DNA of 64,000 bases, from positions 46,678-110,677 of the IMG/VR virus record IMGVR_UViG_3300023179_000038; one strand, given 5' to 3'. The notes under the pieces are model-generated. The model was not told where the DNA came from. It saw only the letters and a program-made list of their open reading frames with translations, and did not search any database. The position numbers and the translations under genes are program-made. Shown here in pieces: positions 1 to 63,239 of the stretch; position 1 is the stretch's first letter; every line of letters begins with the position of its first letter. This DNA is from a virus.

Positions 1-880
1 ATAAATATTTAGAATCATAAACATATCCACAGCCCCATCGATGTTGTAATGGTGTCTTCCAATTCCAACCAAAATCCATTGCTATTGCTTCACTATATGG
101 TTGTATTTTTTTCATATCCATAAAAAATGCTATTGCCGAATCGCAAGGAAGAGAATCTTGTGTATTTACCCACTCTGCATTGTAGTGCTTACCAATAAAC
201 ATTCTTTTAAATCCAGTTGAATCAATTAAAAAATCACACAAGATAGTCTCTCCGTTAGCAATGACATACTCTATCTCATTATTTATATTTGTTGAAAATG
301 AATCAACTACTGCATCAACTACCCTAATGCCACGCAAAACAGCATATTTGTTAAAAAACTGTACTAATTTTTTTGCATCAATATGCCAAGAATGAGCATC
401 AGGAATAACATTACCATATTCGTTTATAACTGTTTGTAAATTAATTTTATCTAAGTTTGTATCTCTATCTATTGCATATGCAATGGTTGATGCAAAATCT
501 TTCCTACTATCTATCTTAAACTGTTTATAATTATAATTTTCTAGAGTTTGTTTTGTCTTAGCCAAATGTTTAAAATATGATAGTGTCGATGTGTCTGTGT
601 AATCACAGAATGGATGAAAATATTTTTCTTTGTCTTTTCCCCAACCAACAAACATTAATCCATTTTTTACAGTTGCCCCAGTGTATTTAACAAACTCCTC
701 AATTGGCAAATCAAGTTTTTTTAATGTCTGGGCAAACACTGGAGTAGTTCCTTCTCCTGCTCCAAGAATACCAATTTTGCTGCTGTCAATAAGTGTGATA
801 TTCCATTCTGGATGTTTATGCTGAATCTGCAAAGCACTCATGTACCCTGCAGACCCACCACCGACAACAACTATTTTCAT
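1..880 (-). CDS. Flavin-dependent tryptophan halogenase-like protein (runs off window edge)
   Basis: Manual translation from ATG at 880: MKIVVVGGGSAGYMSAL...IGILGAGEGTTP...GATVKNGLMFVGW; FAD GxGxxG motif, GEGT motif and Lys in the PrnA K79-like position. Confidence 0.85.
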   Translation of the reverse strand, partial: MKIVVVGGGSAGYMSALQIQHKHPEWNITLIDSSKIGILGAGEGTTPVFAQTLKKLDLPIEEFVKYTGATVKNGLMFVGWGKDKEKYFHPFCDYTDTSTLSYFKHLAKTKQTLENYNYKQFKIDSRKDFASTIAYAIDRDTNLDKINLQTVINEYGNVIPDAHSWHIDAKKLVQFFNKYAVLRGIRVVDAVVDSFSTNINNEIEYVIANGETILCDFLIDSTGFKRMFIGKHYNAEWVNTQDSLPCDSAIAFFMDMKKIQPYSEAIAMDFGWNWKTPLQHRWGCGYVYDSKYL

Positions 881-1407
881 TATTGATTAAAACCTCTTCT
901 ATCGTACCCAAATCTATTTATCATCTCAGCGGACTCTGCCCATGTATCAGAATTTTCTTCTACTCCGTGACCTTCTACAATTCTGTTAAACATATTAAAT
1001 GCTGCACAAACAACTATTGCTTCTTTTAACTGATATTCAGAAAATCCAGAATTTAGAACTGCTTCAACATGTGTGCTATTCAGGCTTGATGGCGCAATGG
1101 TCAAAATTTTTACATAATCTAAAATACTCTTTAATTTATTTTCTTCATAGTTTCCACTGACTACATCTTCTAACTCTTTTTCGTCTGCACCAACTGAAAT
1201 TGCAAACATTTTGTGCGATCCAGTACAAAACTTACATGAGTTTAATGATGATGTAAATGCTGCAATCAACTCTCTATCTTTTGGATCTAAATGTCCAGGC
1301 TCTCTTAGTATTTCCTGTGCAAAAGAAAGTAATGGCATAAACTTGTTTGGCTGTTGCATAAATACATCTGATATGGTTTGTCCGCTTGGAACTGATTGCA
1401 ATAACAT
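880..1407 (-). CDS. Carboxymuconolactone decarboxylase/AhpD-like peroxidase-related protein
   Basis: RELIAAFTSSLNSCKFCTGSH (ExxxxxxSxxNxCxxCxxxH) motif. Confidence 0.8.
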   Translation of the reverse strand: MLLQSVPSGQTISDVFMQQPNKFMPLLSFAQEILREPGHLDPKDRELIAAFTSSLNSCKFCTGSHKMFAISVGADEKELEDVVSGNYEENKLKSILDYVKILTIAPSSLNSTHVEAVLNSGFSEYQLKEAIVVCAAFNMFNRIVEGHGVEENSDTWAESAEMINRFGYDRRGFNQ

Positions 1408-2355
1408 TTATTTTCCTATCATTAGTTGTATTGAATCTGAAAAGTTTGAACTTAGTTTAGCAATATCAGAATCGTCCATATCACCAATATCCTTGTACTT
1501 GCTATCCAGGTTTATTACAGAAACTCTTGACCCAAGTTTTTCAATAATTTTTGTCTTCATATTTCCACCTGCCTCGTCGTTGTCTGCAATAACAATTATA
1601 TCATTAAAGTATTTTTTTAATAACTCTACCTGACTATTAGATACATTTGCCCCAAGAGTTGCAACCGCTATAAATCCTACTTGATCAAGTCTTATTGCAT
1701 CAAATGACGACTCTACCACGTATACCCTATCTGCAGTCTTAACTCTATGCAGATTAAAAAGAGTTTTACTTTTTGGTAGTCCTGGCGTATTTTTAAATTG
1801 TTTTCCTTCAATAGACCTACCAACAAATCCAATTGGCATGCCGTCTGGACTATGAACTGGTATAGTAATCATATCTTGTTTTTCAGAATATCCTATAATA
1901 AACTTATTTTTAGAATAATTATTTATTTTTCTATGAGAAAGATATTCATTTGCCCTTTTAGAAGAAATCAAATTATTATTTAATTTTTTAATTATTGAAT
2001 CATCAAACTCAATAAATTCTGTTTTTGTTATTAATTTTTTATTTATATCTTTTTCAAAGTTGTTTTCTGTTTGTTTATTTTTAATAAATCTAATTGATTC
2101 AAAATATGTTTTTCCAGATACGTACATTATTAATTCAATAATGTCTACAGTGTGATGACAGGAAAAACAAAAAAATCTACCAGTATTTTTATCTACTTCT
2201 CCAGCAGGAGTTCTATTATTAGAATGAAATGGACAAAATATTATGTAATGAGAATCTACCTCAGACTCAATATTTATTCCTGAATCTGAGAGTACTCTTT
2301 CAATTTGTTCTTTTGAATAGGTATCGGTTTTGATCCATCGACTCCTAGTATCCAC
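1408..2355 (-). CDS. dnaG: DNA primase (CHC2 zinc finger + TOPRIM)
   Basis: CPFH...CFSC Zn finger; VVESSFDA and IADNDEAG TOPRIM motifs. Confidence 0.93.
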   Translation of the reverse strand: MDTRSRWIKTDTYSKEQIERVLSDSGINIESEVDSHYIIFCPFHSNNRTPAGEVDKNTGRFFCFSCHHTVDIIELIMYVSGKTYFESIRFIKNKQTENNFEKDINKKLITKTEFIEFDDSIIKKLNNNLISSKRANEYLSHRKINNYSKNKFIIGYSEKQDMITIPVHSPDGMPIGFVGRSIEGKQFKNTPGLPKSKTLFNLHRVKTADRVYVVESSFDAIRLDQVGFIAVATLGANVSNSQVELLKKYFNDIIVIADNDEAGGNMKTKIIEKLGSRVSVINLDSKYKDIGDMDDSDIAKLSSNFSDSIQLMIGK

Positions 2356-2600
2356 TCAGCGCTCTTCTTTCCTGTATATACTCCATAAACTGTTAAACAA
2401 AAATTAAATATTTGCTTTGATTCATTATATTGTACTGTAAAATCTGGTTCAATGTCAAGTCTTGGAACATATCCAAAAGCCCTCATCTCTAAAATTAAAA
2501 ATCTAATATATTCTTGTTTTAATCTACTAATTGCAGATTCATCGTAAATAGAGCCATCTAGGCTGAATGACTTTATCTTTTTGTGATGATAAGTTTTCAC
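2274..2600 (-). CDS. Hypothetical phage protein between helicase and primase
   Basis: ORF collinear with replication genes. Confidence 0.6.
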   Translation of the reverse strand: MKTYHHKKIKSFSLDGSIYDESAISRLKQEYIRFLILEMRAFGYVPRLDIEPDFTVQYNESKQIFNFCLTVYGVYTGKKSAEWILGVDGSKPIPIQKNKLKEYSQIQE

Positions 2601-2623
2601 AAAACATATTATAACTAACTATA

Positions 2624-3844
2624 TTAATTTTCATAATCTTTGTATCTATAGTATCCTTTGTCAAAATCTACCTGCACTAAAAAGTCTCCCATAAAGCCGT
2701 TCCTGTTTTTTCTGAATACACACTCAATAATATCACTATTGGTTGCACGACCCAAAGCCATAACCCAGTCAGCATCATATGCAATCTGTCTGGACCAAGC
2801 AGTTTGTCCAAGTGTTGGGGCAGTGCTTAGATCTTTTACATCATCAGGAGTTGCAGAAGAAATTGCAATTATAGGAACCTCTTCACTAATAGCCATCAGT
2901 TTAAGTTCTCTTGAAAGATTTTTCATTCTTACAGTTTCATTATCTGATTTTTGATTTGGAGCCATAAGTTGTAAATAATCAACAATCACAAAATCTGGTT
3001 TGTATTGATTTATTTTTCCACGAATAACTGATGGACTTACTTCTCCACCACTATCATTTGAAATTATATGAAATTCTGGCTTTCCTGATAATTTATTTTT
3101 ATGCCAATTTTTTAGCATGTCTAATTCTATTTCGCCATTACTTAATTTTCTATGAGACCAAAGCCCCTCACCCATAATTGCAAATACACGATTACGAACT
3201 TCAGTTTCAGACATTTCAAGACTTATCACCATTGGGGTTTTACCCTGCTTCCAGGCTTGTACAGCAAAGTAAAGAGCCAGCCAAGATTTTCCAATACCTG
3301 GATATGCTAAAAACACTCCAAGTTGTCCTGCAGTTATTCCAGATGGGAGATAGTTGTCAAATCCTGGTAATCCAGTTTTAATACCAAATTGACCATTCAT
3401 CTTTTGTTGTTTAATATTTTCAAAATATGCTATAGCAGATTCTAGATCTGTGGCATCAATATCACGAATTGCAGAAACATTTTTCTTTAATTCAGATGTC
3501 TTTGTAATTAATGAAGTTAATGCGTTAGCACTATTTCCTAACTGAACTTCACTTGCTGCAGATCGCAAAATATTCTTTAAACTATCATTTAAATATTCTG
3601 ATTGTAATTCTTGAAGGTGATGCTTTGTTGCCCCAACTTCATCTATTAAGATAAAGTCTTTAAATTTTTCTGAAACTAAGGATGGTGGAGGAACAGATCC
3701 GTTATTATTAAAATATAAATTGATAAAATTCCATATATCGTTATGAGTGTGAAGCATGCTCTCTATATTAGATTGCAACAAAACGCCAATTTGTTTATCT
3801 TTTAATACCGCCGAAATTAATCTTGCCTCTACGTTATTCATCAA
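2624..3844 (-). CDS. dnaB: DnaB-like replicative helicase
   Basis: Walker A AYPGIGKS, SLEMS, IVDYLQLM, QIAYDADW, KNRNG motifs. Confidence 0.95.
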   Translation of the reverse strand: MMNNVEARLISAVLKDKQIGVLLQSNIESMLHTHNDIWNFINLYFNNNGSVPPPSLVSEKFKDFILIDEVGATKHHLQELQSEYLNDSLKNILRSAASEVQLGNSANALTSLITKTSELKKNVSAIRDIDATDLESAIAYFENIKQQKMNGQFGIKTGLPGFDNYLPSGITAGQLGVFLAYPGIGKSWLALYFAVQAWKQGKTPMVISLEMSETEVRNRVFAIMGEGLWSHRKLSNGEIELDMLKNWHKNKLSGKPEFHIISNDSGGEVSPSVIRGKINQYKPDFVIVDYLQLMAPNQKSDNETVRMKNLSRELKLMAISEEVPIIAISSATPDDVKDLSTAPTLGQTAWSRQIAYDADWVMALGRATNSDIIECVFRKNRNGFMGDFLVQVDFDKGYYRYKDYEN

Positions 3845-4142
3845 TCCACTTCTTTGCTAGTTTTCTACGTTGTAGTCTTTCTTCAATATCCTGCTCTACT
3901 TCTATTTTTGCCTGAAATATTCTCTCTGTATTGTATGAAAAGTAATTCCAAGATGGGTTGCTAGAAACAGAAAAATAATAATCAAGTAAGTCATAACAAG
4001 TTTCCAATCCATAAGATTCAATTATAGCATCTGAAGACCACTGCTCTGCATTAATATTAAATAAATTTTTAGTATTATATCTTTGAAAATGAAGTTTATT
4101 ATAACGACTAAGCAAAGACATTCTATCCTTGCGGGTAGCCAT
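3834..4142 (-). CDS. Hypothetical protein (replication module)
   Basis: ORF overlapping helicase start. Confidence 0.6.
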   Translation of the reverse strand: MATRKDRMSLLSRYNKLHFQRYNTKNLFNINAEQWSSDAIIESYGLETCYDLLDYYFSVSSNPSWNYFSYNTERIFQAKIEVEQDIEERLQRRKLAKKWIDE

Positions 4143-4399
4143 TATTTTTCTTCTATCTCATACTTTGCTTCTTGAATTTTAGTTGTTAACTTATCTTCAA
4201 CAAACTTATAAACTCGTTCAAAAGCCTGATCAATGTTTTCTCCATTACGTCTAGAGTCAACAATCCCTAAATCAATTCTTAATGATTGAAAGTTTCCTAA
4301 ATTAAGCGTATATCCCAATGTTATATTAATTTTTGTATTTTCATTTTCTGTCATTTTATCCTCCACTAATAGAATATCATTATTCATGATATATGTCAA
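4142..4399 (-). CDS. Hypothetical phage protein
   Basis: ORF with LGYTLNLGNFQSLRIDLG; probable start at internal MTENE after GGAGG. Confidence 0.6.
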   Translation of the reverse strand: MTYIMNNDILLVEDKMTENENTKINITLGYTLNLGNFQSLRIDLGIVDSRRNGENIDQAFERVYKFVEDKLTTKIQEAKYEIEEK

Positions 4400-4411
4400 A
4401 CATTTTTATAA

Positions 4412-4954
4412 TTATAAACTTTCTGCCCAAATTGGTATAAACCTTCCATCTTCCGTTTTTGTATATGTAATCATACCATCCCCCATTCTTCTTGTCAACT
4501 CAGCCCTACTTGGAGTTATATCGTTAGTAATTAATTTATCGGCTCTTGGACGACCAATATGATACGTTGCTAAGATATCTCTAATTTCAAATACTTGTGA
4601 TTCAGAATAATACGACCTAACCTGCCAGCCAGTTTTTCCCCCAACCTGAGAGCCAGTTGGAAATGGAATTATTCTTCGTTTCATAAGGGATGGCATATAC
4701 TTTTTGTGTCGATTTATCAAATCAGCAGTTTGTCCCACAGTGTATGCTCTTTCTCTATTTCTTTTAAAATCTGAAATAAGACAACTTTCAATTCTATCCT
4801 TATTAATATTATAAAGAGAAATAATATTATTTGATCTATTTATATGATGTATCCTAACCAAATCTTTATTTAAAAACCAAACTTTTTTATTTCCAGGAAT
4901 TACAGGTAGGACATTGTAATCTTCGCTCGAAACTTTTCCTTTTCTAGTAGCCAT
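4412..4954 (-). CDS. Putative helix-turn-helix (MerR-like) DNA-binding protein
   Basis: AYTVGQTADLINRH...RSYYSESQVFEI pattern. Confidence 0.55.
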   Translation of the reverse strand: MATRKGKVSSEDYNVLPVIPGNKKVWFLNKDLVRIHHINRSNNIISLYNINKDRIESCLISDFKRNRERAYTVGQTADLINRHKKYMPSLMKRRIIPFPTGSQVGGKTGWQVRSYYSESQVFEIRDILATYHIGRPRADKLITNDITPSRAELTRRMGDGMITYTKTEDGRFIPIWAESL

Positions 4955-5091
4955 TGTCCTTCTGTCGATTCGTTAGGTGGATGAAAAAATCTTCTAGATC
5001 CACAATATAAACAGTAAATTTCAATATGCTCTACTGTAGTGTATTGCCGATCTATAAACATTTTTTTTTTACATTTTTTACATAAAATCAT
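4900..5091 (-). CDS. Small zinc-ribbon protein
   Basis: CKKC...CLYCG. Confidence 0.6.
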   Translation of the reverse strand: MILCKKCKKKMFIDRQYTTVEHIEIYCLYCGSRRFFHPPNESTEGQWLLEKEKFRAKITMSYL

Positions 5092-5534
5092 TAGTTTGGT
5101 ACACCAACAACTATTAAATTTACAGCAACAGAAACATCTCCAGTATTGTTAAATCTAATTACACCCTCTACCTTTGAAGTTGTTATTGATTTTAAAACAA
5201 CTGTAACATCTTTACCAGCATCAGTACCGCCAACGTTTATTGGTGTAGCAGTTACTACTGGCGTATACTTAAAATCTGTCGGAAAGTCATAAGTAAATGG
5301 AGATTCTTGTCCTTTTGTTCTTGTTGAACTAATTACAACATCTATATATCCGCCAATAATTCTAGCCTCTGAAGCCTTAAGATTTTGACGTCCAATTCCT
5401 GGAGCATCAACAGAAACATACTTATTATTTGAAAAAGATGTTTGAGACGATATATCGTTAATTGCATTTGCAAGTTCGTAGATGTATGATACATCCAGTG
5501 GCTGGCCTCTTTCTGGTAACGGTATTTTTGCCAT
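5091..5534 (-). CDS. Tail tip/minor tail protein
   Basis: Position at end of tail operon; FPTDFKYTPVVTAT beta-rich fibre-like segment. Confidence 0.55.
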   Translation of the reverse strand: MAKIPLPERGQPLDVSYIYELANAINDISSQTSFSNNKYVSVDAPGIGRQNLKASEARIIGGYIDVVISSTRTKGQESPFTYDFPTDFKYTPVVTATPINVGGTDAGKDVTVVLKSITTSKVEGVIRFNNTGDVSVAVNLIVVGVPN

Positions 5535-5552
5535 GATTAATCTATTATACCA

Positions 5553-5987
5553 CTAAACATTTACTTGATTTGATTCAAATAATGTAGCCCCTGAAAATCT
5601 TTCCTTGGGAAAGGTTGGTACTTGTACGGCAATTCTAAAATGATTTGCCCCCTCTTTAATAATTGTTGAATAACTAGTAGTAAACACGGTAGAAACAAAT
5701 TCCCAAGGATCACTATTCCATTTAAGATAAATATCAAATTCAGACCTTATGTTATTTGATGGATTCCAAACAACATTAATCATGTCATGAGATTGTTCAA
5801 CAGCAACACGATAATCTATCGTATCTGGGCTTGATGCTGCAATTTTATAGTTTGGTGACCAATGAGAAGTTCTGTTTTTATCTTCTGTAATAACTCTATA
5901 TTTGACAATATATTCTTGATCTGTTCCATAAAATTCTGGAAGGTCTTTTTTAACTATGACTATCTTTTTAATATTTGAATCTGACAT
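5553..5987 (-). CDS. Putative minor tail protein
   Basis: Synteny; beta-rich Fn3-like character. Confidence 0.5.
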   Translation of the reverse strand: MSDSNIKKIVIVKKDLPEFYGTDQEYIVKYRVITEDKNRTSHWSPNYKIAASSPDTIDYRVAVEQSHDMINVVWNPSNNIRSEFDIYLKWNSDPWEFVSTVFTTSYSTIIKEGANHFRIAVQVPTFPKERFSGATLFESNQVNV

Positions 5988-7126
5988 TATTGAACATCCA
6001 AAGCAAACCTAAACTCAATATAGTTTGTTGTGTTTGCAGATTTAATAATAGTTTCGGCATTGTTATTTTTAATAACGGAATACCCAGTTAAACCATATAA
6101 AGGATTATTTGTGCTATTATTTTCTAATCTAATAGCATCTAAACATACATAAAAATTATCTGTTGGAGAACCATTATCAGTTATACAAGCATAAATCTTT
6201 ACAACATCAACGCTGCTCCAAGTAAATCCAGTGCTTTTATAAAGTTCTTGTAACTGTTTTGTTGCAACAACATATCTACTATTTGAAAAATTGTGTTGAT
6301 TTGTATCTGTTCCATTATTAAGATTAACTTCAAACCTTGCCCATTGCCCATTAGGATCATTATGAATATCAGATGATGCAAATTCTAGCATAATTCTTAC
6401 ATTGTCTGGAACCGCAGTTGAACTTCCATTTTTATTTATTACTGTAAAAGAAAGCCTGATGTCATCTGTTGGAGAATTTCTATTAAAATCTAATATCGCT
6501 CCAGTTAAATGAATGTGTTCAGAATTTTGACCAACAACAATATGGTTATTAGAGTCAATTGTTAACTCAGAAGAATCTCCACTCATTACTATTGTGTTAT
6601 TAAAAAAACGACATCTTTCATATCTTTGAATTCTTTCTGTATTTGTAAAAATTCTATTATCTGAGTTTGTTTGAAATACACTGTATGGTTGATTAATAAT
6701 ATTATTGTTGTCTGATCCATCTAGCGGAGAGTAAACAATTGGAATTTCTGTTGCAGCAGTATTTGTGTGATGTTCCCAATTTTCATCTTGTGTAAATGCA
6801 TAAATAGATTTACTATCATATGCGCCAGCCTGAGAGTTTGCGCCTGCTGAAAAAACTCCGACTTCACTAATTTCATATCTTTCTTCGCTTGGTAGTTCTG
6901 CCGTTAAAACAATTTTTGATATACCATCTTCTGTTACATATCCACGAGACGTAATTGGGACACGAAACATTTCAAAATCTAACCTATCTTTGCCTGAATA
7001 GTCTCCCAGGATAGCATCAGACGTTAGTGGCTTTGCTCCACAACCAACTGCAATATAAGAGGCATATGCTGGTGCTTGACCAATCAAGTATTTTGCTAAA
7101 ATATTTTTACCAGTATTAGTTATCAT
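5987..7126 (-). CDS. Putative baseplate/minor tail protein
   Basis: MITNTGKNILAKYL...ISEVGVFS N-terminus typical of tail-fibre anchor domains. Confidence 0.6.
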   Translation of the reverse strand: MITNTGKNILAKYLIGQAPAYASYIAVGCGAKPLTSDAILGDYSGKDRLDFEMFRVPITSRGYVTEDGISKIVLTAELPSEERYEISEVGVFSAGANSQAGAYDSKSIYAFTQDENWEHHTNTAATEIPIVYSPLDGSDNNNIINQPYSVFQTNSDNRIFTNTERIQRYERCRFFNNTIVMSGDSSELTIDSNNHIVVGQNSEHIHLTGAILDFNRNSPTDDIRLSFTVINKNGSSTAVPDNVRIMLEFASSDIHNDPNGQWARFEVNLNNGTDTNQHNFSNSRYVVATKQLQELYKSTGFTWSSVDVVKIYACITDNGSPTDNFYVCLDAIRLENNSTNNPLYGLTGYSVIKNNNAETIIKSANTTNYIEFRFALDVQ

Positions 7127-7128
7127 TA

Positions 7129-7728
7129 TTATTCCACCTCATATATTGTACCATTATAAATTTTTCCACCTACTAAGATTTGAACCTCTATCTGCTCATC
7201 CCCTTGTAAATTTATTATATCAATAATAAGATTTCCTGTAGCCTCATCTATATACACTGTCTTACAATTTGGTCCAGTTCCGCAATTAGGTATTTTTTCT
7301 GATAGTTTTATTGGAAATTTATTAAAATATTCTTCTGATGTATTTTGAAGAGATAAAACATTTTGTGGATTATATTTAAAATATATGCTGCTAAGATTTT
7401 TAATTGGTTGATATATAACATTTTGTCCATTAATAATATCTGTTCTAGCAATATTTATTAATTCTTGACCACCAATATTTTCAAATATTAGGTCTGTCAT
7501 TAATTCAACTGGAACATCTTCTTCTGATATTATTATATCTGGTCTTGCTGTTTTTATACTTTGAGATTGTGCTGAATAATTTGTAGTTTGTCCTTGCATT
7601 CCAGAAGCAGCAAGAAGAGTTGGAGATATTGCTTGAACATTAGAATTAGCAGAGGTTGTACTAATTGATGCTGATTGATTAAATATTACATCTGGCGTTG
7701 TTGGATAATCAGAATAATTAAATACCAT
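7129..7728 (-). CDS. Putative minor tail protein
   Basis: Synteny. Confidence 0.5.
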   Translation of the reverse strand: MVFNYSDYPTTPDVIFNQSASISTTSANSNVQAISPTLLAASGMQGQTTNYSAQSQSIKTARPDIIISEEDVPVELMTDLIFENIGGQELINIARTDIINGQNVIYQPIKNLSSIYFKYNPQNVLSLQNTSEEYFNKFPIKLSEKIPNCGTGPNCKTVYIDEATGNLIIDIINLQGDEQIEVQILVGGKIYNGTIYEVE

Positions 7729-7729
7729 C

Positions 7730-10700
7730 TTACACTACCTCACTTAAATATACTCTTGTTTCTGGTCCATTTGTATTTCTAATATATTCAATATTATACA
7801 CTACAAATCTTGAGTCTTTAGCAGATATCTCGTTAGTTTCACTTGAATCTTTATAGTCTATCTCAACTATATCTCCTAATTGTAAGTGTGGCGTTCCAAA
7901 AGTTTGAACCCCAACAGACTTTCTTGGTTTCATAATTTTTGAAATTACCCAAGACATTACTTCCTGTGCATCATCTTGTGTTTGAATATATGGAGCATCT
8001 ATATAAAAATCTTTTTTACCATAAGTCATTCTGCTTGCCTTTATGTCGTCATATTGCTTATTAAATATTAATGGTGATTTTATTAATAAATTATTATTAA
8101 ACTTTGGATTAGAAAAATCGCTATTTTGAGAAAAATATTCATCTACGCTATAATTATGTTCTGATTCTTGAGTAAATGTTACTCCCTGTATTCTTAAATA
8201 ATTTCCACTTGTTGAATCAAGATTAAGAGATGTATCAGTTGAATTAAAAATTAAAAATTCTGCACCATAAGATCCAGCCCTAAATCCAGAAATTGCATAT
8301 CCTTTTAATTTGTTAAATGTTGGAGATATTATTGCATATAGCGCTGGATATGCTTTATCATATCTAATATTAAAATATGCTGCTTCTCTCATAATAGTTC
8401 CAAATTCCTCAAAATAAATATTGTATTTTGGAGTATTGTTTGGATCTATTCCAGATAAATATGTGGACTGCACAATACCACTCATAGAATATTTTCTAAA
8501 AGATTCATTTGCATCAATCTCAGAATCATTGATTGCAGTCATTACTGGAGTATCTAGCGCAAAAACTGTATTTTGACTATAATTGTTTGTTAAAGCATAA
8601 ATATTTTCAAACATACATCTTGCAGATCCACGAACAAAAAGAGCCATATTGTTGTAAATTGGTAGTGGATCTTTATCATCAACTATAGCAATGATCTTAT
8701 TGTTAATATATAAATAAAATCTTCTAATTGTTCCAATATTTTGATATTCTACTGCCAAGTCATATACTGTTGGATTTTCTTCTCCAACCATCCTATACTG
8801 ACCAGTAAAATTACCATCATCCACAATAATGTTTGATAATCCACCCCACAACTTTATTGGAATTGCATCTCCTTGTTTAATGGTAGTTCCCGATACATCA
8901 GAAGCACTTCTCTTTATTTTATAAAAAATAACGTTATGTAAATTTTCTGCAGAAGTATTATAGTTATTAATGTTATTTTCTGTTAATGCTAAAATTTCAA
9001 AATAATATCCTACGTTTGTTGATGGATTTATCATGACGGCCATTCCTCCAGAACCACCGCTAATATTAATATTTTGATCTGGAGTATTTCCAGTAACAAC
9101 GAAATATGTTGTAGAACCAATAGGAGTTTGACCTCTATTTTCGTTGTTTTCAATTTTTCCAACAATTCTCATTCTGGTACCAAAGTGTTTAAATCTATCA
9201 TCTAATGGCTTATTGACATATGAAATAAAATCAATTCCATTTTGAGTTGTAGTAAATGATGGTCCACTAATAACTAATGCAGATGATTGAATAGTTCCAG
9301 ACTGTGTAGATAGTATAGAATTAGATGTAACTTCGTCCTTATATGAAAGTGTTAAAAAGTTTTTAATTGTTCCAGACCTTATTGACTGCTTTGCCAATTC
9401 ATTGCTTACTCCCGCTGCTAAGTTATCAACTGGCATACTTAAAGATTGAGACTGTAAATCTTCTGTTGAAGATAGTGAAAATAATAAATCAGATTTCATG
9501 CTGCAGCCACGAACATTTAAATTATTAGACCAATATTGATTTATACCTGCATTATGAAAAGTAATACTTGTTCCAAATTGTGCACGACCATGTTTTTCAA
9601 CATCGCCATTTTTTAATCTTGTTATTTCATTGATATTTTCATAAAAAGGTTTAGCATAGATTCTTATAAGACCCGTTGGATATATTTTCCCATTATGTCG
9701 TAACTTAGAAAAATAATTTTGATAATCTTGTGTGCTTGTTATCCATACATTGCCATAATCAGTAATGCTGTACTCAACAGCATCATATTTAATTACTTCT
9801 CCATTAGCATAAAAATATCCGTTATACCTTGTAATCCAGTAAACACCTTCTCCTAAATCCATAGTATTATTTATTATTTTATGGTTTGACACAGATGGAA
9901 CTAAATTGTTAAGATCAGAATTTAGGGGTATTGCACTTAAAATATAATCTGATTGCCTGCCACTACTATCATTTATGGATTTTGTATTTTCTGTACCTTC
10001 AACTTCCCAAAGTAATGATGGCTTATATATCCAAGTTTTTTCTTTATCAATTAAACTTGCCTGTCTTATTGAGCCATAAGTTTTTTGAATATACTTTGTT
10101 TTATATTTAATTAATCCATCATTAAAAACTTCTGTATTTTGTGAAGCAATACCAACAATATTTGAAATATTACTTGAAATAGTTTTATTTTTAACAACAC
10201 CGTCTTTTTCAATATCTTTTGATCCATAAAAAACAATATCTGTATTTCTTTGATCTGTTGTTGGCATTATATAGTTTTTGCTCATACACACAAAATTATT
10301 GTATTCATCAAAAAACATAGCAGTTTGAGTTGATCTTGCTAAATCATTTAATATTTCTGCAACTGTTTTATCGGGTGGAATAAAGAAAAATGGAATAATA
10401 CTTTCTTTTTCAAAATTTATTCTTTTAAAAATATAATTAGAAAAACCTATTGAATCTAATAACATAGATATTGCACTACTAACAGAAACGTTTGTTAATA
10501 AAATTTGTGGTGCAATTAATGACTCTAAGTAAAAAAACATATCTCGTAATTGAATAGATACTGTTCGTGATCTATTATCTGTTGCTGGAAACCCTTCAGT
10601 ATACATAGTTTTGATAGGGATAAAATAACTAGATTGTTCCTCATCTGTAATGATTTCATAAAACTTTATTTGAATATTTTTTGTAATAAAATCTTTTATT

Positions 10701-12085
10701 ATGCTATTTAAGTTATTTGTATTAAATGCTTGATCATAATCAAACAACGTAAGTGATCCAGTAGATGCTAAAAGTTGACCGACTGGCAAACCAGATATAC
10801 CAATATCCGATCCAATCTTATTTAAAGCAAAATTAATTGTTTTTTCTGATAGATCTACACATAGTCTTGGAGATAGTTCAATTAAATCAAAAGTTGAATT
10901 TATCTTAGTCATAGTATCAACGACAATACGTAATCCATAAATATAAGAAAATTCACGATATTTTGTTAAACCATCTTGTGTATTAACATAGGATATTGGA
11001 GATGTTGTGTCTGTTACAAAATTAGTTAGCCTATCTATGGTTTCTTCTTGTAAATACCACCCATATGTTGGTGTAAATTTTTCATACAAACTTCCAGTCC
11101 ATATATGATACTCTCCCAAAGAAGTTTCTGAATTTTTTATTAAATAAGCATATCCGTTAATACTTTTTTCAGGCAGTAGGGTCTCTGAAGAAAATTCATC
11201 TGCTTTTATAAAAATGTTTTTATATTTTTCTGGAATTATAAGACCATAAGCAAGTTCAACATAGCCGTCAGATTTTATAATTGGAGTTCCATCATTTCTA
11301 ACTGAAGAGTTGTTAAAATTAATTATATCAACCCAATTATTGTTGCTATCCAAATATTGGATTTTCCATTTTTTAGGAGTACTTTTATTTTCATTTTGAT
11401 AAAATGGATCAGAAAATGTTTTACCCAAACTTGTGAAAGTTCCTAAATTTGTATCTCCAATATGTGTTTGCATTTTTACTATTATTCTATTTGCTGGAAC
11501 TTTTTCTTTATAAACAACAAATGGTGAAGCATCAGAAATATACGAATTTCCATTTAAATTAAAATTTGAAATACCATACTCTAATCCATCTTCTGTTCGA
11601 TAAGATGTCCAATATTTAAATAAATCATTTTTATCAGACATATAATATCTAGGTCGATTAAACATGCTCGGATTTGAATGATGAAAATATTTTCCTGAAA
11701 TAAAAGTTGCCTTATTAATTCCAGATCTTGGTCTAAACCTATTAAAACAATCCTCTAAAGAATATAACAACTTTTGTTTTTCTTTTTTAGATATTAAAAA
11801 CATAGGAGTTGAATTATCTTCTGGACTTATACCGCCATCTATTTTAACGTCAGCATCTGTTGCATTAGTATAAAAATTTCCAATATCATTAATATCAAAT
11901 GTTAAAGATGGTAGTCTATATTTTGAATCAGGGTCTGAGTCTATTGCTAATGGCCTATATCTATAATTTCCAACCTTTAATATGTTATTTGGAATGTTCA
12001 TATTCCACTCTGCAATAACTGCAGATTGAGTCCTAATAACTTCAGAGTTATCTAAATATTCTTTTAATTTTTCGTCTTGAAACAA
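7730..12085 (-). CDS. Large minor tail / tail tip hub protein (1451 aa)
   Basis: Second gene after tape measure; C-terminal GTPHLQLGDIVEI hub-like motif. Confidence 0.7.
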   Translation of the reverse strand: MFQDEKLKEYLDNSEVIRTQSAVIAEWNMNIPNNILKVGNYRYRPLAIDSDPDSKYRLPSLTFDINDIGNFYTNATDADVKIDGGISPEDNSTPMFLISKKEKQKLLYSLEDCFNRFRPRSGINKATFISGKYFHHSNPSMFNRPRYYMSDKNDLFKYWTSYRTEDGLEYGISNFNLNGNSYISDASPFVVYKEKVPANRIIVKMQTHIGDTNLGTFTSLGKTFSDPFYQNENKSTPKKWKIQYLDSNNNWVDIINFNNSSVRNDGTPIIKSDGYVELAYGLIIPEKYKNIFIKADEFSSETLLPEKSINGYAYLIKNSETSLGEYHIWTGSLYEKFTPTYGWYLQEETIDRLTNFVTDTTSPISYVNTQDGLTKYREFSYIYGLRIVVDTMTKINSTFDLIELSPRLCVDLSEKTINFALNKIGSDIGISGLPVGQLLASTGSLTLFDYDQAFNTNNLNSIIKDFITKNIQIKFYEIITDEEQSSYFIPIKTMYTEGFPATDNRSRTVSIQLRDMFFYLESLIAPQILLTNVSVSSAISMLLDSIGFSNYIFKRINFEKESIIPFFFIPPDKTVAEILNDLARSTQTAMFFDEYNNFVCMSKNYIMPTTDQRNTDIVFYGSKDIEKDGVVKNKTISSNISNIVGIASQNTEVFNDGLIKYKTKYIQKTYGSIRQASLIDKEKTWIYKPSLLWEVEGTENTKSINDSSGRQSDYILSAIPLNSDLNNLVPSVSNHKIINNTMDLGEGVYWITRYNGYFYANGEVIKYDAVEYSITDYGNVWITSTQDYQNYFSKLRHNGKIYPTGLIRIYAKPFYENINEITRLKNGDVEKHGRAQFGTSITFHNAGINQYWSNNLNVRGCSMKSDLLFSLSSTEDLQSQSLSMPVDNLAAGVSNELAKQSIRSGTIKNFLTLSYKDEVTSNSILSTQSGTIQSSALVISGPSFTTTQNGIDFISYVNKPLDDRFKHFGTRMRIVGKIENNENRGQTPIGSTTYFVVTGNTPDQNINISGGSGGMAVMINPSTNVGYYFEILALTENNINNYNTSAENLHNVIFYKIKRSASDVSGTTIKQGDAIPIKLWGGLSNIIVDDGNFTGQYRMVGEENPTVYDLAVEYQNIGTIRRFYLYINNKIIAIVDDKDPLPIYNNMALFVRGSARCMFENIYALTNNYSQNTVFALDTPVMTAINDSEIDANESFRKYSMSGIVQSTYLSGIDPNNTPKYNIYFEEFGTIMREAAYFNIRYDKAYPALYAIISPTFNKLKGYAISGFRAGSYGAEFLIFNSTDTSLNLDSTSGNYLRIQGVTFTQESEHNYSVDEYFSQNSDFSNPKFNNNLLIKSPLIFNKQYDDIKASRMTYGKKDFYIDAPYIQTQDDAQEVMSWVISKIMKPRKSVGVQTFGTPHLQLGDIVEIDYKDSSETNEISAKDSRFVVYNIEYIRNTNGPETRVYLSEVV

Positions 12086-58437: not shown

Positions 58438-58459
58438 AGTCTAGCAGGGGGGTCTGACA
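58438..58459 (-). promoter_or_regulatory. PafBC/RecA-NDp-type promoter
   Basis: TGTCAG-N10-TAGACT on minus strand. Confidence 0.7.
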
Positions 58460-58487
58460 TTTTGGGGTCTTATTTGCTTAGGCTCAC

Positions 58488-58503
58488 TGTGATTTGTATC
58501 ACA
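58488..58503. promoter_or_regulatory. CRP-family-like site (perfect)
   Basis: TGTGA-TTTGTA-TCACA. Confidence 0.7.
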
Positions 58504-58783
58504 TTTATTTGCTAAGGCTCATACCCTAAACTTTCTATATTTAATTTGATACTGGTATCCTATCATAGATAATCCTAAAAGTCAAGAGCAGACACGGCGT
58601 GTCGCATGTGATTTATACCACAAGACAATTGGTGCAAATCGGACATGACCTCGGCGCTAACGGCGTGTCGTCCACATGATATAAATCACACCCTTATGTT
58701 ACGCTTAAGTTATCCACATGACGTACATCACATCAGCGAATTGTCTGCTATGTCCGTTTTGTTATATCTACTGGCTAGTAGAA

Positions 58784-58805
58784 TGTCAGTGGTAGGTGTT
58801 AGAAT
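58784..58805 (+). promoter_or_regulatory. PafBC/RecA-NDp-type promoter
   Basis: TGTCAGTG...: TGTCAG-N10-TAGAAT. Confidence 0.72.
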
Positions 58806-58856
58806 ACTAGTATAAAGATTGAAAAAGAAGTAAATCTCTTAAAGAAAGGAATTCAA

Positions 58857-59368
58857 ATGAATTCACTACTAAATAAAAAGTGTGCTAAACACTTACCAAA
58901 TAAGTTAGCGATATCATTGGTAAATGATATAAAATATACCTTCTGTGAAAATTGTGAGCAGAATATTTATTCTCACTATATTGAGGATAGCGAATTGCTA
59001 TCTTATTGGTCTTCATGGAAGGTAGGTAAGTAATATGGAAAAACTTATTTGCTGTTTTTGTGAAAGTGTTTCATCTAGTGAAGCAAAGTTTTGTTTCTCA
59101 TGTAATGAATATAAAGGCTTAATGCCAATATCTAAATTTGATAATCTCTACGGAAGGAGATAAATAAATGATAACTAAAAAATGTATATCATGTAATGGT
59201 ACCGCTATGGTATCTAAAGTTTCTATCCCTGCTATTTGCGATAATTGTATCGCTAAGAATTGGAGTAAATAAATGATAACTCTTAATTGTCGTCTATGTG
59301 ATGAAAAAGTTTCTAGCAATTTATTTGATGAGCAAGATATAATTACTTGCTCAAATTGTTGGGAATAA
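58857..59368 (+). CDS. Four consecutive Cys-rich microprotein ORFs (58857-59033, 59035-59163, 59168-59272, 59273-59368)
   Basis: Manual translation; tightly packed with RBS-like motifs and CxxC pairs. Confidence 0.65.
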
Positions 59369-59735
59369 AAAAATGCTTAACGAAATAAAAAATAAAGTAA
59401 TTCGTATTCAAGAGTTGCGTCGTAGTAATGCTGCGACAGCAATTCCAAATAAAAAAAAATATACTAGAAAGGTAAAACATAAAAATGGAAAAACAAAATA
59501 AAGATATTTTTAATTTTGAAAAAGCAATTCAATTAGATCACTTAACAAAAGATGAATTAGAATTAGTAGAAAATATTTTAAAAGATTTTAAATAAATTCT
59601 GCTAAAAAAATCCCGAGGCGTTTTGTCCCAAATGTCCGTTTACGTACGATGTGTTTAAGATCACAGAAATCTTGTGGCGTAAATCACACCGCTGAGCGTC
59701 TTACTATTTAAGACTACTCGTGGGTAATTTGTAAA

Positions 59736-59757
59736 TGTCTGCTAATTTTGGTAAACT
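59736..59757 (+). promoter_or_regulatory. PafBC/RecA-NDp-type promoter
   Basis: TGTCTG-N10-TAAACT. Confidence 0.6.
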
Positions 59758-59795
59758 TACAGAGTAATAAAAATAAAGAAAGGAAGTGGCTATAA

Positions 59796-59996
59796 ATGGC
59801 TAACTTATACACAATAGAAAACCTGCTAGAAGGTAAAGAGTATAATTCACGCTCTCTAAATGGTGAAATAATAAACGCAGAAAAAACAGACCATTGGTTT
59901 GGTAATGGAAAAGAAGCGTATCGTGTTCTAATCAGAACGCCTTATTCTTATAAAGACCACTATCGCATAATAGCGGTAAAAGTAGGTGATGAATAA
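59796..59996 (+). CDS. Hypothetical early protein
   Basis: ORF after GAAAGGA RBS. Confidence 0.65.
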   Translation: MANLYTIENLLEGKEYNSRSLNGEIINAEKTDHWFGNGKEAYRVLIRTPYSYKDHYRIIAVKVGDE

Positions 59997-60113
59997 TGGG
60001 ATATATTGAAATCTTTCGCCTTGATGAGCAGGGCGCTGGCTGGGTTGACCTTTCTGAGGCTACCCCTCAAGAATTGCTAGACCTTGAAATAGGCTTATTT
60101 CAGGAAGGGGCTT

Positions 60114-60129
60114 TGTGAGATAAATCACA
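60114..60129. promoter_or_regulatory. CRP-family-like site (perfect)
   Basis: TGTGA-GATAAA-TCACA. Confidence 0.7.
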
Positions 60130-60157
60130 AGGCAACACACCCCTAGCAGGTAGAAAA

Positions 60158-60179
60158 TGTCAGGGGTTTTTGATAGGAT
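60158..60179 (+). promoter_or_regulatory. PafBC/RecA-NDp-type promoter
   Basis: TGTCAG-N10-TAGGAT. Confidence 0.7.
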
Positions 60180-60213
60180 AGTCTTATCAAACAATAAAGA
60201 AAGGTAATCAGAA

Positions 60214-60399
60214 ATGACTTATACTGTAAAACTAGAAACCTATAATGGTGCTGTAAAAAATATCAACCTACCTTCTAAAGGTGCTGTTGCTCAATTCATA
60301 AACACTTACCCAAACCAACTACCTGTTGGCGTATCTGTTAAATTAAATTGTGATGTGCTTGGTATTAGTGGCACACTACGAGGAAAGGCGTTAGCATAA
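60214..60399 (+). CDS. Hypothetical early protein
   Basis: ORF after GAAAGG RBS. Confidence 0.65.
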   Translation: MTYTVKLETYNGAVKNINLPSKGAVAQFINTYPNQLPVGVSVKLNCDVLGISGTLRGKALA

Positions 60400-60529
60400 T
60401 GATAAATTCTGTAATGTCTTTTGATTGTAATGAGTGTAATGGTAAAGGTTTAATCTTTTGGGGAGATAACCTTGACTACAATGTAGAAAAATGCGAGTGC
60501 GATAATTTTGCGTTAGGAAATTTATTCTA

Positions 60530-60733
60530 ATGAAAACAATTAAACACTCTCTACACTTTGTAACTGAGTTAGATGAAACTAATCCAACTGCTAAACAATT
60601 ATTAGACTTACCTGCTGATGAGCAAATAATGCTTTTAGAGGGTATGCTTAAAGAATTAGTTGCCCCTAAGTTATCTAAAACAATTAAAGAGTTAAACGAA
60701 AATAATTCTTTTGCAACTCTAAGGTTGGCTTAA
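60530..60733 (+). CDS. Hypothetical early protein
   Basis: Coupled ORF. Confidence 0.6.
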   Translation: MKTIKHSLHFVTELDETNPTAKQLLDLPADEQIMLLEGMLKELVAPKLSKTIKELNENNSFATLRLA

Positions 60734-60735
60734 TA

Positions 60736-60927
60736 ATGATGACTAGAAAAGACTATATAAAAACCGCAAATATCTTAAAAGGATTTGTTGATGAAATTCC
60801 ACAAACCACTTATGAGGATTTAGTAAATGAATTTGCTGAGTGGTTCAAATCTGATAATGATAATTTTGATTTTGCAAGATTTGAAAAGGCTTGCGGAATT
60901 GATGAGATTGGTTTAATTCCAGTTTAA
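60736..60927 (+). CDS. Hypothetical early protein
   Basis: MTRKDY..A....DN.NFD.ARF.KAC motif. Confidence 0.65.
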   Translation: MMTRKDYIKTANILKGFVDEIPQTTYEDLVNEFAEWFKSDNDNFDFARFEKACGIDEIGLIPV

Positions 60928-60973
60928 TAAATAAAATCCCCTCTAGAACAAATGTTCGGAGGGGGCCGAGGGG

Positions 60974-60994
60974 TTTTCCACAGGTTTATCCACA
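60974..60994 (+). promoter_or_regulatory. Tandem DnaA boxes
   Basis: TTTTCCACA-ggt-TTATCCACA. Confidence 0.65.
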
Positions 60995-61047
60995 GGCCTT
61001 TACGTGTGATTAAAAACACACCCTGAATTCCCCAGATTTTTTGATTT

Positions 61048-61069
61048 TGTCAGCCTAATCTGATAGGAT
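61048..61069 (+). promoter_or_regulatory. PafBC/RecA-NDp-type promoter
   Basis: TGTCAG-N10-TAGGAT. Confidence 0.7.
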
Positions 61070-61094
61070 AAAGATATAACGAAAGGAAAACTAA

Positions 61095-61280
61095 ATGAGT
61101 AAAATAAAAAATGCTATTGAGCAGATAGTTAATTGTGATTATTGCTATGGCGTAGGTTGGGAATACTACGGAAATAATGAGGATTGGAATATAGACCCTT
61201 GCGAGTGTAATTTGTATTGTATTCCTTCTGATGAGATAATGGAATACCACCAATTATTTAGAACAAAGGAGAACGCATAA
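61095..61280 (+). CDS. Small Cys-rich early protein
   Basis: CDYC.G.G...CECN. Confidence 0.6.
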   Translation: MSKIKNAIEQIVNCDYCYGVGWEYYGNNEDWNIDPCECNLYCIPSDEIMEYHQLFRTKENA

Positions 61281-61489
61281 TGGAATATAACTATTCACTT
61301 ACTACTTCGTATGACGGAGAGTTAATTCATACCCTGCGAGTTAGCGATATGCTAGAAGCAGTAGACGCATGGAATAAATGTGTAGACTATGGAACAGCCA
61401 AAGAATACGCAACCTATAACTTGTCAGACCCTATGGGCAAAATGTACACTAAAACCTTCTACACTAACGGAGAAGTAAGTGTTAGATAA
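61280..61489 (+). CDS. Hypothetical early protein
   Basis: Coupled ORF with GGAG RBS. Confidence 0.6.
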   Translation: MEYNYSLTTSYDGELIHTLRVSDMLEAVDAWNKCVDYGTAKEYATYNLSDPMGKMYTKTFYTNGEVSVR

Positions 61490-61588
61490 TTTAATTGATA
61501 TGGTGGTAGATATGCGGTCTGCCACCCTTGATCAAAATAAGATAATCGCATATAATCAGATATTAGAAATAATTGAGGAGAAACTATA

Positions 61589-61885
61589 ATGGGAAGTGTA
61601 ACAGCAATAGGTCTAGCGGATACAACGCTAGACTTAGAAACACAATTACTTTATCACTTACAGGGTAATCACTATCCACCAGTTCCTAAAGAAATGGTTC
61701 AACCTTGTATTGAAGCAATTGACGCATACTATGACGAGGATTACTCACGCATGATAGATATGCCAATGGTTGGTAATTATCAAATTACTTACAAAGGCAA
61801 TAAGCAAGCACCAGCAAGCGCAATAGTAAGCCAGCACCACTTAGAGTGGTTTATTAATCCAGCAGATGAGGACTTGTATGAGTAA
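61589..61885 (+). CDS. Hypothetical early protein
   Basis: HLQGNHYPPVP...HHLEWF; GAGGAG RBS. Confidence 0.65.
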   Translation: MGSVTAIGLADTTLDLETQLLYHLQGNHYPPVPKEMVQPCIEAIDAYYDEDYSRMIDMPMVGNYQITYKGNKQAPASAIVSQHHLEWFINPADEDLYE

Positions 61886-61956
61886 AGAATTGCAAGATAA
61901 ATTAGATAAGGCTTCAAAATTATTGGAGCCTATCTTGTGGGAAACATTGGCAGAAA

Positions 61957-62208
61957 TTGAGGAACAAAATGATTGATCTAGAAAATGATGATACTATTCA
62001 GATTGTGGACTATGTAAAGGTTGACTTATTAACTTCAGGGCAATTAGAAATTGACGATTGCATTCTAATTGGTGATGAAGTTGTGTCTATTGTAGATATA
62101 GTTTCACTACCTGATGGATACACTTTAAAAGTTGTAAATGATTTTGGTGAAAGAGATATCATTGAAGTTGGTGAATACGACCAATTTGATTTAATGATGT
62201 TGCAATAA
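61957..62208 (+). CDS. Hypothetical acidic early protein
   Basis: ORF; probable start MIDLE. Confidence 0.55.
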   Translation: MRNKMIDLENDDTIQIVDYVKVDLLTSGQLEIDDCILIGDEVVSIVDIVSLPDGYTLKVVNDFGERDIIEVGEYDQFDLMMLQ

Positions 62209-62294
62209 AGCGGGGCCCGAGGCGATGTCCGTTTTGTCCTATTTAAGCAATTACGTGCACTTGTATTTTTGTCCTGAAAACGTTATAATTAATT

Positions 62295-63017
62295 ATGACC
62301 CAATTAAAGAGATCTTATGACAGAAAAGTGGCTAACCTTGTATCAAAAAACGGAAAGCAAGCAGCAATTGCAAACACGTTCGGTTTACCCGCTGGAAAGA
62401 ATTATTCATGCCCTGGTGCCACTATGGTTTGTGAGAATGTTTGTTATGCAGGAAAACTCGAAAAACTCTTCAAAGGAGTAAAGACTAATCTCCTGCACAA
62501 TTGGGAGTTGTTAAAAGACGCAGATCAAGAAACTATGGAAAAGTTATTGGGTGCAATGATTGATGATTTTAGAACAGATTGTGAGAAGAAAGACGCAGTT
62601 ATGCTATTTCGTATTCACTGGGATGGTGATTTTTTTAATGATACTTATACCAACGCATGGCGCAATGTAATTAGAAATAATTTTGATATAAAATTTTGGG
62701 TATACACTAGAGTACACTCTGCAGCGCTAATGCTCAAAGGTATACCTAATCTATCTTTATACTATTCAACAGATAGCGAAAATAAAGAGATAGGTGTTAG
62801 TCTTAAAAAAGATCATGGTGTTAGACTTGCATACCTTGCTAAAAATTTTGCAATAGGCCAAGCAGATATGAAAGAATTATTTAATCGTCCTGGCGCTAAG
62901 TGTCCTGAGAACTTAAAGTCAATTCCCCTTATCTCAAATGCTGGAAGCGCTTGCGTATCTTGCGGATTGTGTGTATACTCTAAGAGTGATATCGTATTCT
63001 CATCATCTAAAAAATAG
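62295..63017 (+). CDS. GP88-like (radical-SAM-related) phage protein
   Basis: FGLPAG..SCPGAT..C...CYA, FRIHWDGDF, FWVYTR, C-terminal CP..C..C.LC. Confidence 0.7.
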   Translation: MTQLKRSYDRKVANLVSKNGKQAAIANTFGLPAGKNYSCPGATMVCENVCYAGKLEKLFKGVKTNLLHNWELLKDADQETMEKLLGAMIDDFRTDCEKKDAVMLFRIHWDGDFFNDTYTNAWRNVIRNNFDIKFWVYTRVHSAALMLKGIPNLSLYYSTDSENKEIGVSLKKDHGVRLAYLAKNFAIGQADMKELFNRPGAKCPENLKSIPLISNAGSACVSCGLCVYSKSDIVFSSSKK

Positions 63018-63114
63018 GAGAAAAAAGTGGATTGGAAATTCTACCTATTTTGCTGGATAATCTTATTTCTTATTTATCAGTAAAATGTCCGTTATGTCCG
63101 TTTCGATATGGTGG

Positions 63115-63130
63115 TGTGAGATACATCACA
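63115..63130. promoter_or_regulatory. CRP-family-like site (perfect)
   Basis: TGTGA-GATACA-TCACA. Confidence 0.7.
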
Positions 63131-63239
63131 GATACCATATCTCAAAATATGAGATTATTAGAAAAATAACTTGTATTTTTAGCCAAAAAATGTTAGACTT
63201 AAACAGTAAGTAAAACCAACAAGAAAGAAGGAAAACCAA

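Follow-up and report, generated by a model that had tools for sequence, protein, structure and literature searches.

The window studied here is a stretch of 64,000 nucleotides from IMG/VR virus record IMGVR_UViG_3300023179_000038 (positions 46,678 to 110,677 of that record). With about 33% GC, it makes up the right end of a genome of 110,677 bp whose CheckV completeness is 99%, and its source is a large uncultured lake-water phage of actinobacteria. Genes run leftward across most of this genome. Near 58.5 kb of the window lies a divergent hinge, from which a rightward block of tiny open reading frames (ORFs) starts, passes the contig end and resumes at genome positions 1-10,951. Our subject is a set of nine 16-bp palindromes of the type TGTGA-N6-TCACA, called boxes in what follows, which occupy positions 58488-63130 at the hinge and to its right. 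The rightward block contains runs of early ORFs of 31-60 amino acids with paired CxxC motifs, at 58857-59365 and 60399-61280, which give weak matches to zinc-ribbon families of Pfam.

All nine sites reported in the initial annotation are present, three of them perfect, four with one mismatch and two with two mismatches. Every one of them could be assigned to a promoter, spacing being measured from the box centre to the first base of the -10 element. On the leftward side of the hinge, box 1 (58488..58503, perfect) is centred 52.5 bp upstream of the -10 of PL1 (58438..58459, minus strand), a TGTCAG-N10-TAGACT promoter with PafBC/RecA-NDp-like geometry (PMC8635444), and box 2 (58607..58622, one mismatch) is likewise centred 52.5 bp upstream of the -10 of PL2 (58557..58585, minus strand), a sigma70-like TTGACT-17-TAGGAT promoter with a TG extension. 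All further promoters lie on the plus strand. The two-mismatch boxes 3 (58675..58690) and 4 (58717..58732), both with CATGA as the left half, are 117.5 and 75.5 bp from the -10 of PR1 (58784..58805, TGTCAG-N10-TAGAAT), and the one-mismatch boxes 5 (59650..59665) and 6 (59673..59688) are 94.5 and 71.5 bp from that of PR2 (59736..59757, TGTCTG-N10-TAAACT). Box 7 (60114..60129, perfect) stands 52.5 bp from the -10 of PR3 (60158..60179) and box 8 (61005..61020, one mismatch) 51.5 bp from that of PR4 (61048..61069), both promoters reading TGTCAG-N10-TAGGAT. Finally, box 9 (63115..63130, perfect) lies 71.5 bp from the -10 of PR6 (63171..63199), which is sigma70-like (TTGTAT-17-TAGACT) with an extended -10 (TGTTAGACT) and is conserved in relatives. 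The sites thus belong to early promoters on both sides of the hinge, and they are all intergenic except box 7, which overlaps the stop codon of a 40-amino-acid ORF (59996-60118).

The enrichment of perfect sites is clear: the window holds three against 0.09 expected, a number reached in none of 100 shuffles. When up to one mismatch is allowed, the window as a whole shows only a mild excess (7 versus 3.2), but the clustering is extreme: seven of the eight such sites of the whole 110,677-bp genome fall inside the 4.6 kb from 58488 to 63130.

Of the core promoters, five conform to TGTC[A/T]G-N10-TAnnnT and lie within 2.6 kb (58438-61069), with only two further copies in the 110-kb genome; they match the bipartite PafBC motif tGTCgg-N10-tAnnnT except that the fifth base is off-consensus. 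Others are sigma70-like with an extended -10. A scan with the generic sigma70 consensus was uninformative in this AT-rich DNA, giving 27 matches where 24.6 were expected. Terminator-like sites numbered 9 versus 3.2 expected, few of them inside intergenic blocks.

To follow the boxes beyond the window, we used the 240-amino-acid product of an early gene (62295-63017) as a query in IMG/VR, which returned at least 579 matches, and analysed 80 related loci. Together these loci, 1.33 Mb in all, contain 351 perfect and 341 one-mismatch boxes, while the rate taken from shuffles of the window predicts about two perfect ones. Five complete relatives (105-114 kb) each confine their perfect boxes to a single early stretch of no more than 11 kb, and a reversed-pattern control gave no match in the same five genomes. 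The load per genome is 9-15 boxes. We also aligned the orthologous intergenic block 3' of the 240-amino-acid gene from 66 distinct relatives. The half-sites TGTGA and TCACA of box 9 are at least 90% conserved there, whereas the spacer and the flanks drift, and apart from them only the -35 and the extended -10 stand out as strongly conserved islands of the alignment. In the Streptomyces phages LukeCage and Jada, which are cultured relatives, box matches are scattered and do not exceed background; inheritance of the array from Stanwilliamsviridae relatives was therefore rejected, and the array is an innovation of the freshwater clade.

The distance between box and promoter proved to be quantised. 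In the relatives, distances to the nearest box peak at 52.5, 61.5-62.5 and 71.5-73.5 bp. So that an inherited promoter would be counted only once, promoters were clustered by their downstream sequence into 110 groups; in 30 of the 39 groups that bear boxes, the modal spacing falls into the bins 51.5-53.5, 61.5-63.5 or 71.5-73.5. A period of 10.5 bp fits these spacings best (R = 0.85), a fit that was reached in none of 20,000 uniform null draws. Inside single orthologous promoter groups the spacing switches between 52.5, 62.5 and 72.5 bp, and the sigma70-like promoter 3' of the 240-amino-acid gene displays the same three classes (19, 8 and 36 sequences). As at Class I promoters, then, the site precedes the -35, keeps to a single face of the helix and moves in steps of about 10-11 bp. 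Such a helical-repeat constraint is the hallmark of a protein that, when bound, has to be oriented toward the transcription machinery. At these fixed promoter distances the mismatch counts are bimodal, with one mode at 0-1 and the other at 5-10, which shows the box to be a discrete element.

What kind of protein might read it is suggested by 236 promoter-linked sites of the family, whose logo is aTGTGAt-nwAn-ATCACA. The GTG and CAC of the two halves are invariant and never mismatched; position 6 is T in 52% and A in 2% of the sites, position 11 is A in 69% and T in 1%, and position 9 is A in 72%. Boxes 3 and 4 of the window are probably weaker or half sites, since CATGA misses the G that is invariant in this logo. 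The 16-bp inverted repeat with its 6-bp spacer has the layout of CRP and GlxR operators, and the secondary preferences of these proteins for T6, A11 and a central TA are found as well (GlxR consensus TGTGANNTANNTCACA, E. coli CRP consensus AAATGTGAtctagaTCACATTT; PMC4254451, PMC5449483). The assignment to the actinobacterial Crp/GlxR consensus made in the initial annotation is thereby borne out in detail, with the caveat that the genome has 33% GC and that its host is probably a freshwater actinobacterium. An operator for Rex was considered and set aside. The Rex consensus, reportedly described by Brekasis and Paget in 2003, is TTGTGAA-N4-TTCACAA; it needs A6 and T11, and a Rex-type operator is ruled out because these two bases are almost excluded from the family sites.

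We consider it reasonably probable, though far from settled, that the nine palindromes are docking operators for a Crp/GlxR-type dimer of the host that acts as a Class-I-like activator of the immediate-early promoters. The predicted binder would be a dimeric protein of the CRP family, most likely the host's global regulator of the Crp/GlxR type, and its operators would be built into the phage promoters a whole number of helical turns upstream of the core. A bound dimer would then always meet RNA polymerase from the same side, and it would recruit or stabilise the enzyme at promoters that mostly lack a canonical -35. If the -10 is taken to start at -12, the box centres would lie near -64.5, -74.5, -84.5 and -106.5. 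We infer that host Crp is the binder, that it activates and that it responds to cyclic AMP (cAMP) or nutritional state, and a contribution of PafBC to the early promoters is likewise putative. A bolder version, which we regard as rather doubtful, makes the immediate-early promoters of this abundant family of freshwater actinophages two-input devices that combine a PafBC-type -26 element, sensing single-stranded DNA or damage, with a phased CRP box reporting cAMP or energy. The phage would then settle from these two global signals of the host whether to start an infection, with no need of a regulator of its own, and the CRP input would have arisen convergently in unrelated actinophages.

Several facts weigh against the activation by host Crp proposed here. 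The absolute positions assume a start site and are about 3 bp off those of E. coli Class I sites. Some orthologous groups have off-phase spacings (57.5, 64.5 and 90.5 bp), 71 of the 110 groups of TGTCNG-type promoters in the relatives have no box, and in the window itself the promoters PR5, PR7 and PR8 are box-free. The Streptomyces relatives have no array, so the wider phage family can do without it. Any of the tiny early ORFs, mostly zinc ribbons, could be a novel DNA binder. Lastly, box arrays occur also in phages without WhiB, and for this reason the motif alone cannot identify its binder.

The host to which the proposed activator would belong is probably a freshwater actinobacterium. The phage genome encodes WhiB and a GP88-family protein that is also found in mycobacteriophages, and because of these two genes we take the host to be an actinobacterium. 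Its structural genes are akin to those of Streptomyces Stanwilliamsviridae; the portal protein, for instance, is 45-47% identical to the portals of the ~130-kb Streptomyces siphoviruses of that family. At the level of sequence comparison, an actinobacterial host is thus supported by WhiB, by the Stanwilliamsviridae-like structural genes and by the PafBC-like core promoters. The isolated phages of Planktophila form a separate 39-kb family that is unlike the phage studied here. With the phage class II ribonucleotide reductase as a query, a scan of genome contigs found no cellular relative. The phage WhiB gave a single match in a cellular bin, a short Lake Mendota contig of 5.6 kb (JBIPLL010000608.1) from a metagenome-assembled genome of Beijerinckiaceae, whose WhiB is 64% identical to that of the phage; this contig is probably a mis-binned phage fragment.

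A phage protein might nevertheless read the boxes, and this is the alternative that we take most seriously, although we hold it to be rather doubtful. It would be a dimeric regulator with an unrecognisable domain, encoded by the phage or delivered with the virion, that works as a timing switch and either activates or shuts the immediate-early promoters. The early region is indeed rich in small uncharacterised ORFs, many of them CxxC zinc ribbons, and the array is specific to the freshwater clade, being absent from the Streptomyces relatives. The initial annotation had proposed to look for a phage-encoded regulator of the same site; our scans found no Crp, recognisable helix-turn-helix (HTH) regulator, sigma factor or cyclase. 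In the phage genome there was no cNMP-binding, HTH_Crp, WYL, HTH_3, sigma region 4 or class III cyclase domain, nor any winged-HTH one, and among the families listed by Pfam and PHROG scans of 151 ORFs WhiB alone is a transcription factor. Among 46 early ORFs, mostly zinc ribbons, none had an HTH at E<=0.1. One PHROG match named 'DNA binding protein' turned out to be a DenV-like glycosylase. Moreover, the earliest promoters to either side of the divergent hinge carry boxes, and an activator of these would have to be in the cell beforehand; the logo, too, agrees with the CRP consensus even at positions 6 and 11.

The recurrence of the box elsewhere also speaks against a private phage regulator. 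A scan of IMG/VR for two perfect boxes 5-35 bp apart found at least 116 stretches, where by our own estimate about three would be expected by chance. Of the 80 such loci that were analysed, 33 share no protein with the phage, and their GC ranges from 26 to 71%. WhiB was present in four of ten paired-box records tested and absent in six; the four loci with WhiB (45, 47, 54 and 60% GC) have at most that protein in common with the phage, and thus the same type of box stands in unrelated WhiB phages without common early genes. In one of these four, 10 nt separate the box from a TTGACA that follows it, a position one turn of the helix closer in than the 52.5 class. Since the same operator recurs in unrelated actinophages, a common host factor is favoured, and judged by the motif Crp/GlxR is the obvious candidate. 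Two further loci deserve mention. A complete phage genome of 94.7 kb and 26% GC that lacks WhiB (L126, IMGVR_UViG_3300045988_163471) carries 17 perfect boxes in 7.3 kb, from which it follows that CRP-type arrays exist also in non-actinobacterial, very AT-rich phages. In an unrelated WhiB phage of 54% GC (L096, 13000-14500), dense boxes of the TGTGACGGGTGTCACA type are interleaved with TTCGAAC-N4-GTTCG palindromes and with DnaA-like boxes.

If the binder is a CRP-family protein of the host, it might also silence or delay early transcription rather than activate it, as a host restraint or a pseudolysogeny-like brake that works by upstream binding or looping. The motif and its conservation would fit this equally, CRP-family proteins are known to repress as well as to activate (PMC5449483), and the two to four boxes found at the hinge and at PR2, spaced 23, 42 and 68 bp, could allow looping or cooperative binding. 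Yet the boxes never overlap a -10 or a -26/-35 element, and single, promoter-distal, helically phased positions are typical of activation, which makes such a brake unlikely.

Still less credible, to the point of being improbable, is a decoy array that would titrate the host regulator off its own regulon as the phage DNA replicates. The initial annotation had placed this possibility beside control of early transcription, and of the two it is the latter that the 10.5-bp phasing to the -10 upholds. Although replication would multiply the 9-15 sites of each genome, these are locked to the 10.5-bp ladder, typically one per promoter, and are confined to positions upstream of promoters instead of being densely packed; titration needs no phasing, and a pure decoy is for that reason disfavoured.

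The least probable reading of all is that the boxes are hairpins of RNA or DNA, serving as terminators or for processing, or else joints at which mobile early-gene cassettes recombine, for although the region does consist of small promoter-bounded gene cassettes like the PeSL units (PMC2839356) and boxes 60114 and 63115, with their extended arms, fold far better than shuffles (z = -6.5 and -4.2), four of the six folded regions, holding five of the boxes, are no more stable than shuffles, an arm extension is absent from 227 of 252 unique perfect boxes of the family, the half-sites are invariant in sequence and do not covary, no T-tract was seen 3' of the boxes, and an Rfam search gave no match.

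Activation by a host Crp/GlxR-type dimer remains the reading that we prefer, and the surroundings of the boxes contain further motifs that we record in their own right. Copies of a 17-nt direct repeat, TTATTTGCT(T)AGGCTCA, stand on either side of box 1 (58470-58486 and 58505-58521). At the divergent hinge (58591-58603 and 58660-58670) there are a palindrome, GACACGGCGTGTC, and a second copy of ACGGCGTGTCG, each just 5' of a box. The word ATGTCCG(TTT) occurs at 58640, 58750, 59632, 62225, 63085 and 63094, in the same intergenic blocks and mostly just upstream of boxes; the 80 related loci hold 370 copies versus 71 in Markov shuffles, and it also follows a box in one unrelated WhiB phage locus (L137). 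Words resembling DnaA boxes (TTATCCACA, TTTTCCACAGG and TTATCCACAGG) adjoin CRP-type boxes at 58710 and 60974-60994. In the related loci TT[ATG]TCCACA is found 368 times versus 55 expected, and dense clusters of DnaA-like boxes also lie beside the box arrays of L096. A second palindrome, ATCTCA-N5-TGAGAT (63139-63155), separates box 9 from the -35 of PR6; its moderate conservation in relatives suggests a second operator.

At the hinge of many relatives two boxes abut exactly 16 bp apart (TGTGg...TCACATGTGt...TCACA; for example L028 at 6496, L030 at 5050 and L037 at 4307). To judge by this distance, the abutment would set two dimers on opposite faces of the helix. The weak CATGA-type boxes of the window look like remnants of such an arrangement.

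The phages of the dominant freshwater actinobacteria are experimentally almost unstudied, and it is still to be learned how lytic phages that infect slow-growing oligotrophs time the onset of infection. If our interpretation is true, a phase-locked dock for the host's nutrient-status regulator would link host physiology to the phage take-over, in a way that is easily testable. Boxes are found in hundreds of environmental genomes and again in unrelated actinophages, and their natural spacing variants of one, two and three turns offer material for studying how actinobacterial Crp activates without a -35. Should the binder turn out to be a phage protein, it would represent a new DNA-binding fold that mimics the specificity of CRP.

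Our literature search brought up no account of CRP-type boxes at the promoters of actinophages. Arrays of NtcA sites in cyanomyophages (PMC3037559) and early-promoter cassettes in T4-type phages (PMC2839356) are, on the other hand, already known. In the PeSL cassettes of the T4-type phages, small early genes form short units bounded by repeated promoter modules (PMC2839356). The likeness lies in uncharacterised small early genes that are arranged in units with a strong early-promoter module; the module of our phage, however, consists of an upstream operator and a promoter, its stem-loop terminator is weak or absent, and both lineage and host differ. In marine cyanomyophages, 1-16 NtcA sites precede phage genes and have been read as exploitation of the host's nutrient-status regulator (PMC3037559). 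There, as here, multiple sites for a CRP-family regulator of the host stand in front of phage genes. In contrast to the boxes, the NtcA motif is GTA-N8-TAC, host phylum and phage type are others, and the sites are scattered over many functions rather than focused on immediate-early promoters, with a helical ladder unreported.

The core promoters have their counterpart in mycobacteria, where the PafBC/RecA-NDp motif tGTCgg(N10)tA(N3)T provides a -26 element that replaces the -35 (PMC8635444). Five phage promoters of the form TGTC[A/T]G-N10-TAnnnT share this geometry. They differ in having A or T instead of G as the fifth base and in carrying an extra CRP-type box upstream; no WYL protein was found in the phage genome, and dependence on PafBC is putative.

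In E. coli, Class I CRP sites are centred at -61.5, -71.5, -82.5 and -92.5 from the mapped start. The phage boxes resemble Class I sites of the E. coli lac type in being 16-bp palindromes upstream of a core promoter whose positions change by whole turns (PMC5449483), and the predicted centres of -64.5, -74.5 and -84.5 differ by about 3 bp from the E. coli ones. Another difference is that most phage core promoters lack a -35 and have TGTC[A/T]G near -26 instead. The same consensus is recognised by mycobacterial CRP and by GlxR, which act mostly as activators (PMC5449483, PMC4254451, PMC4117774), and the CRP of M. tuberculosis uses a similar palindrome at sites such as -62.5 and -69.5 (PMC4117774). 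What sets the present array apart from Class I CRP and GlxR regulation is that its sites lie on a phage genome, at nearly every immediate-early promoter, where binding of the host protein is predicted.

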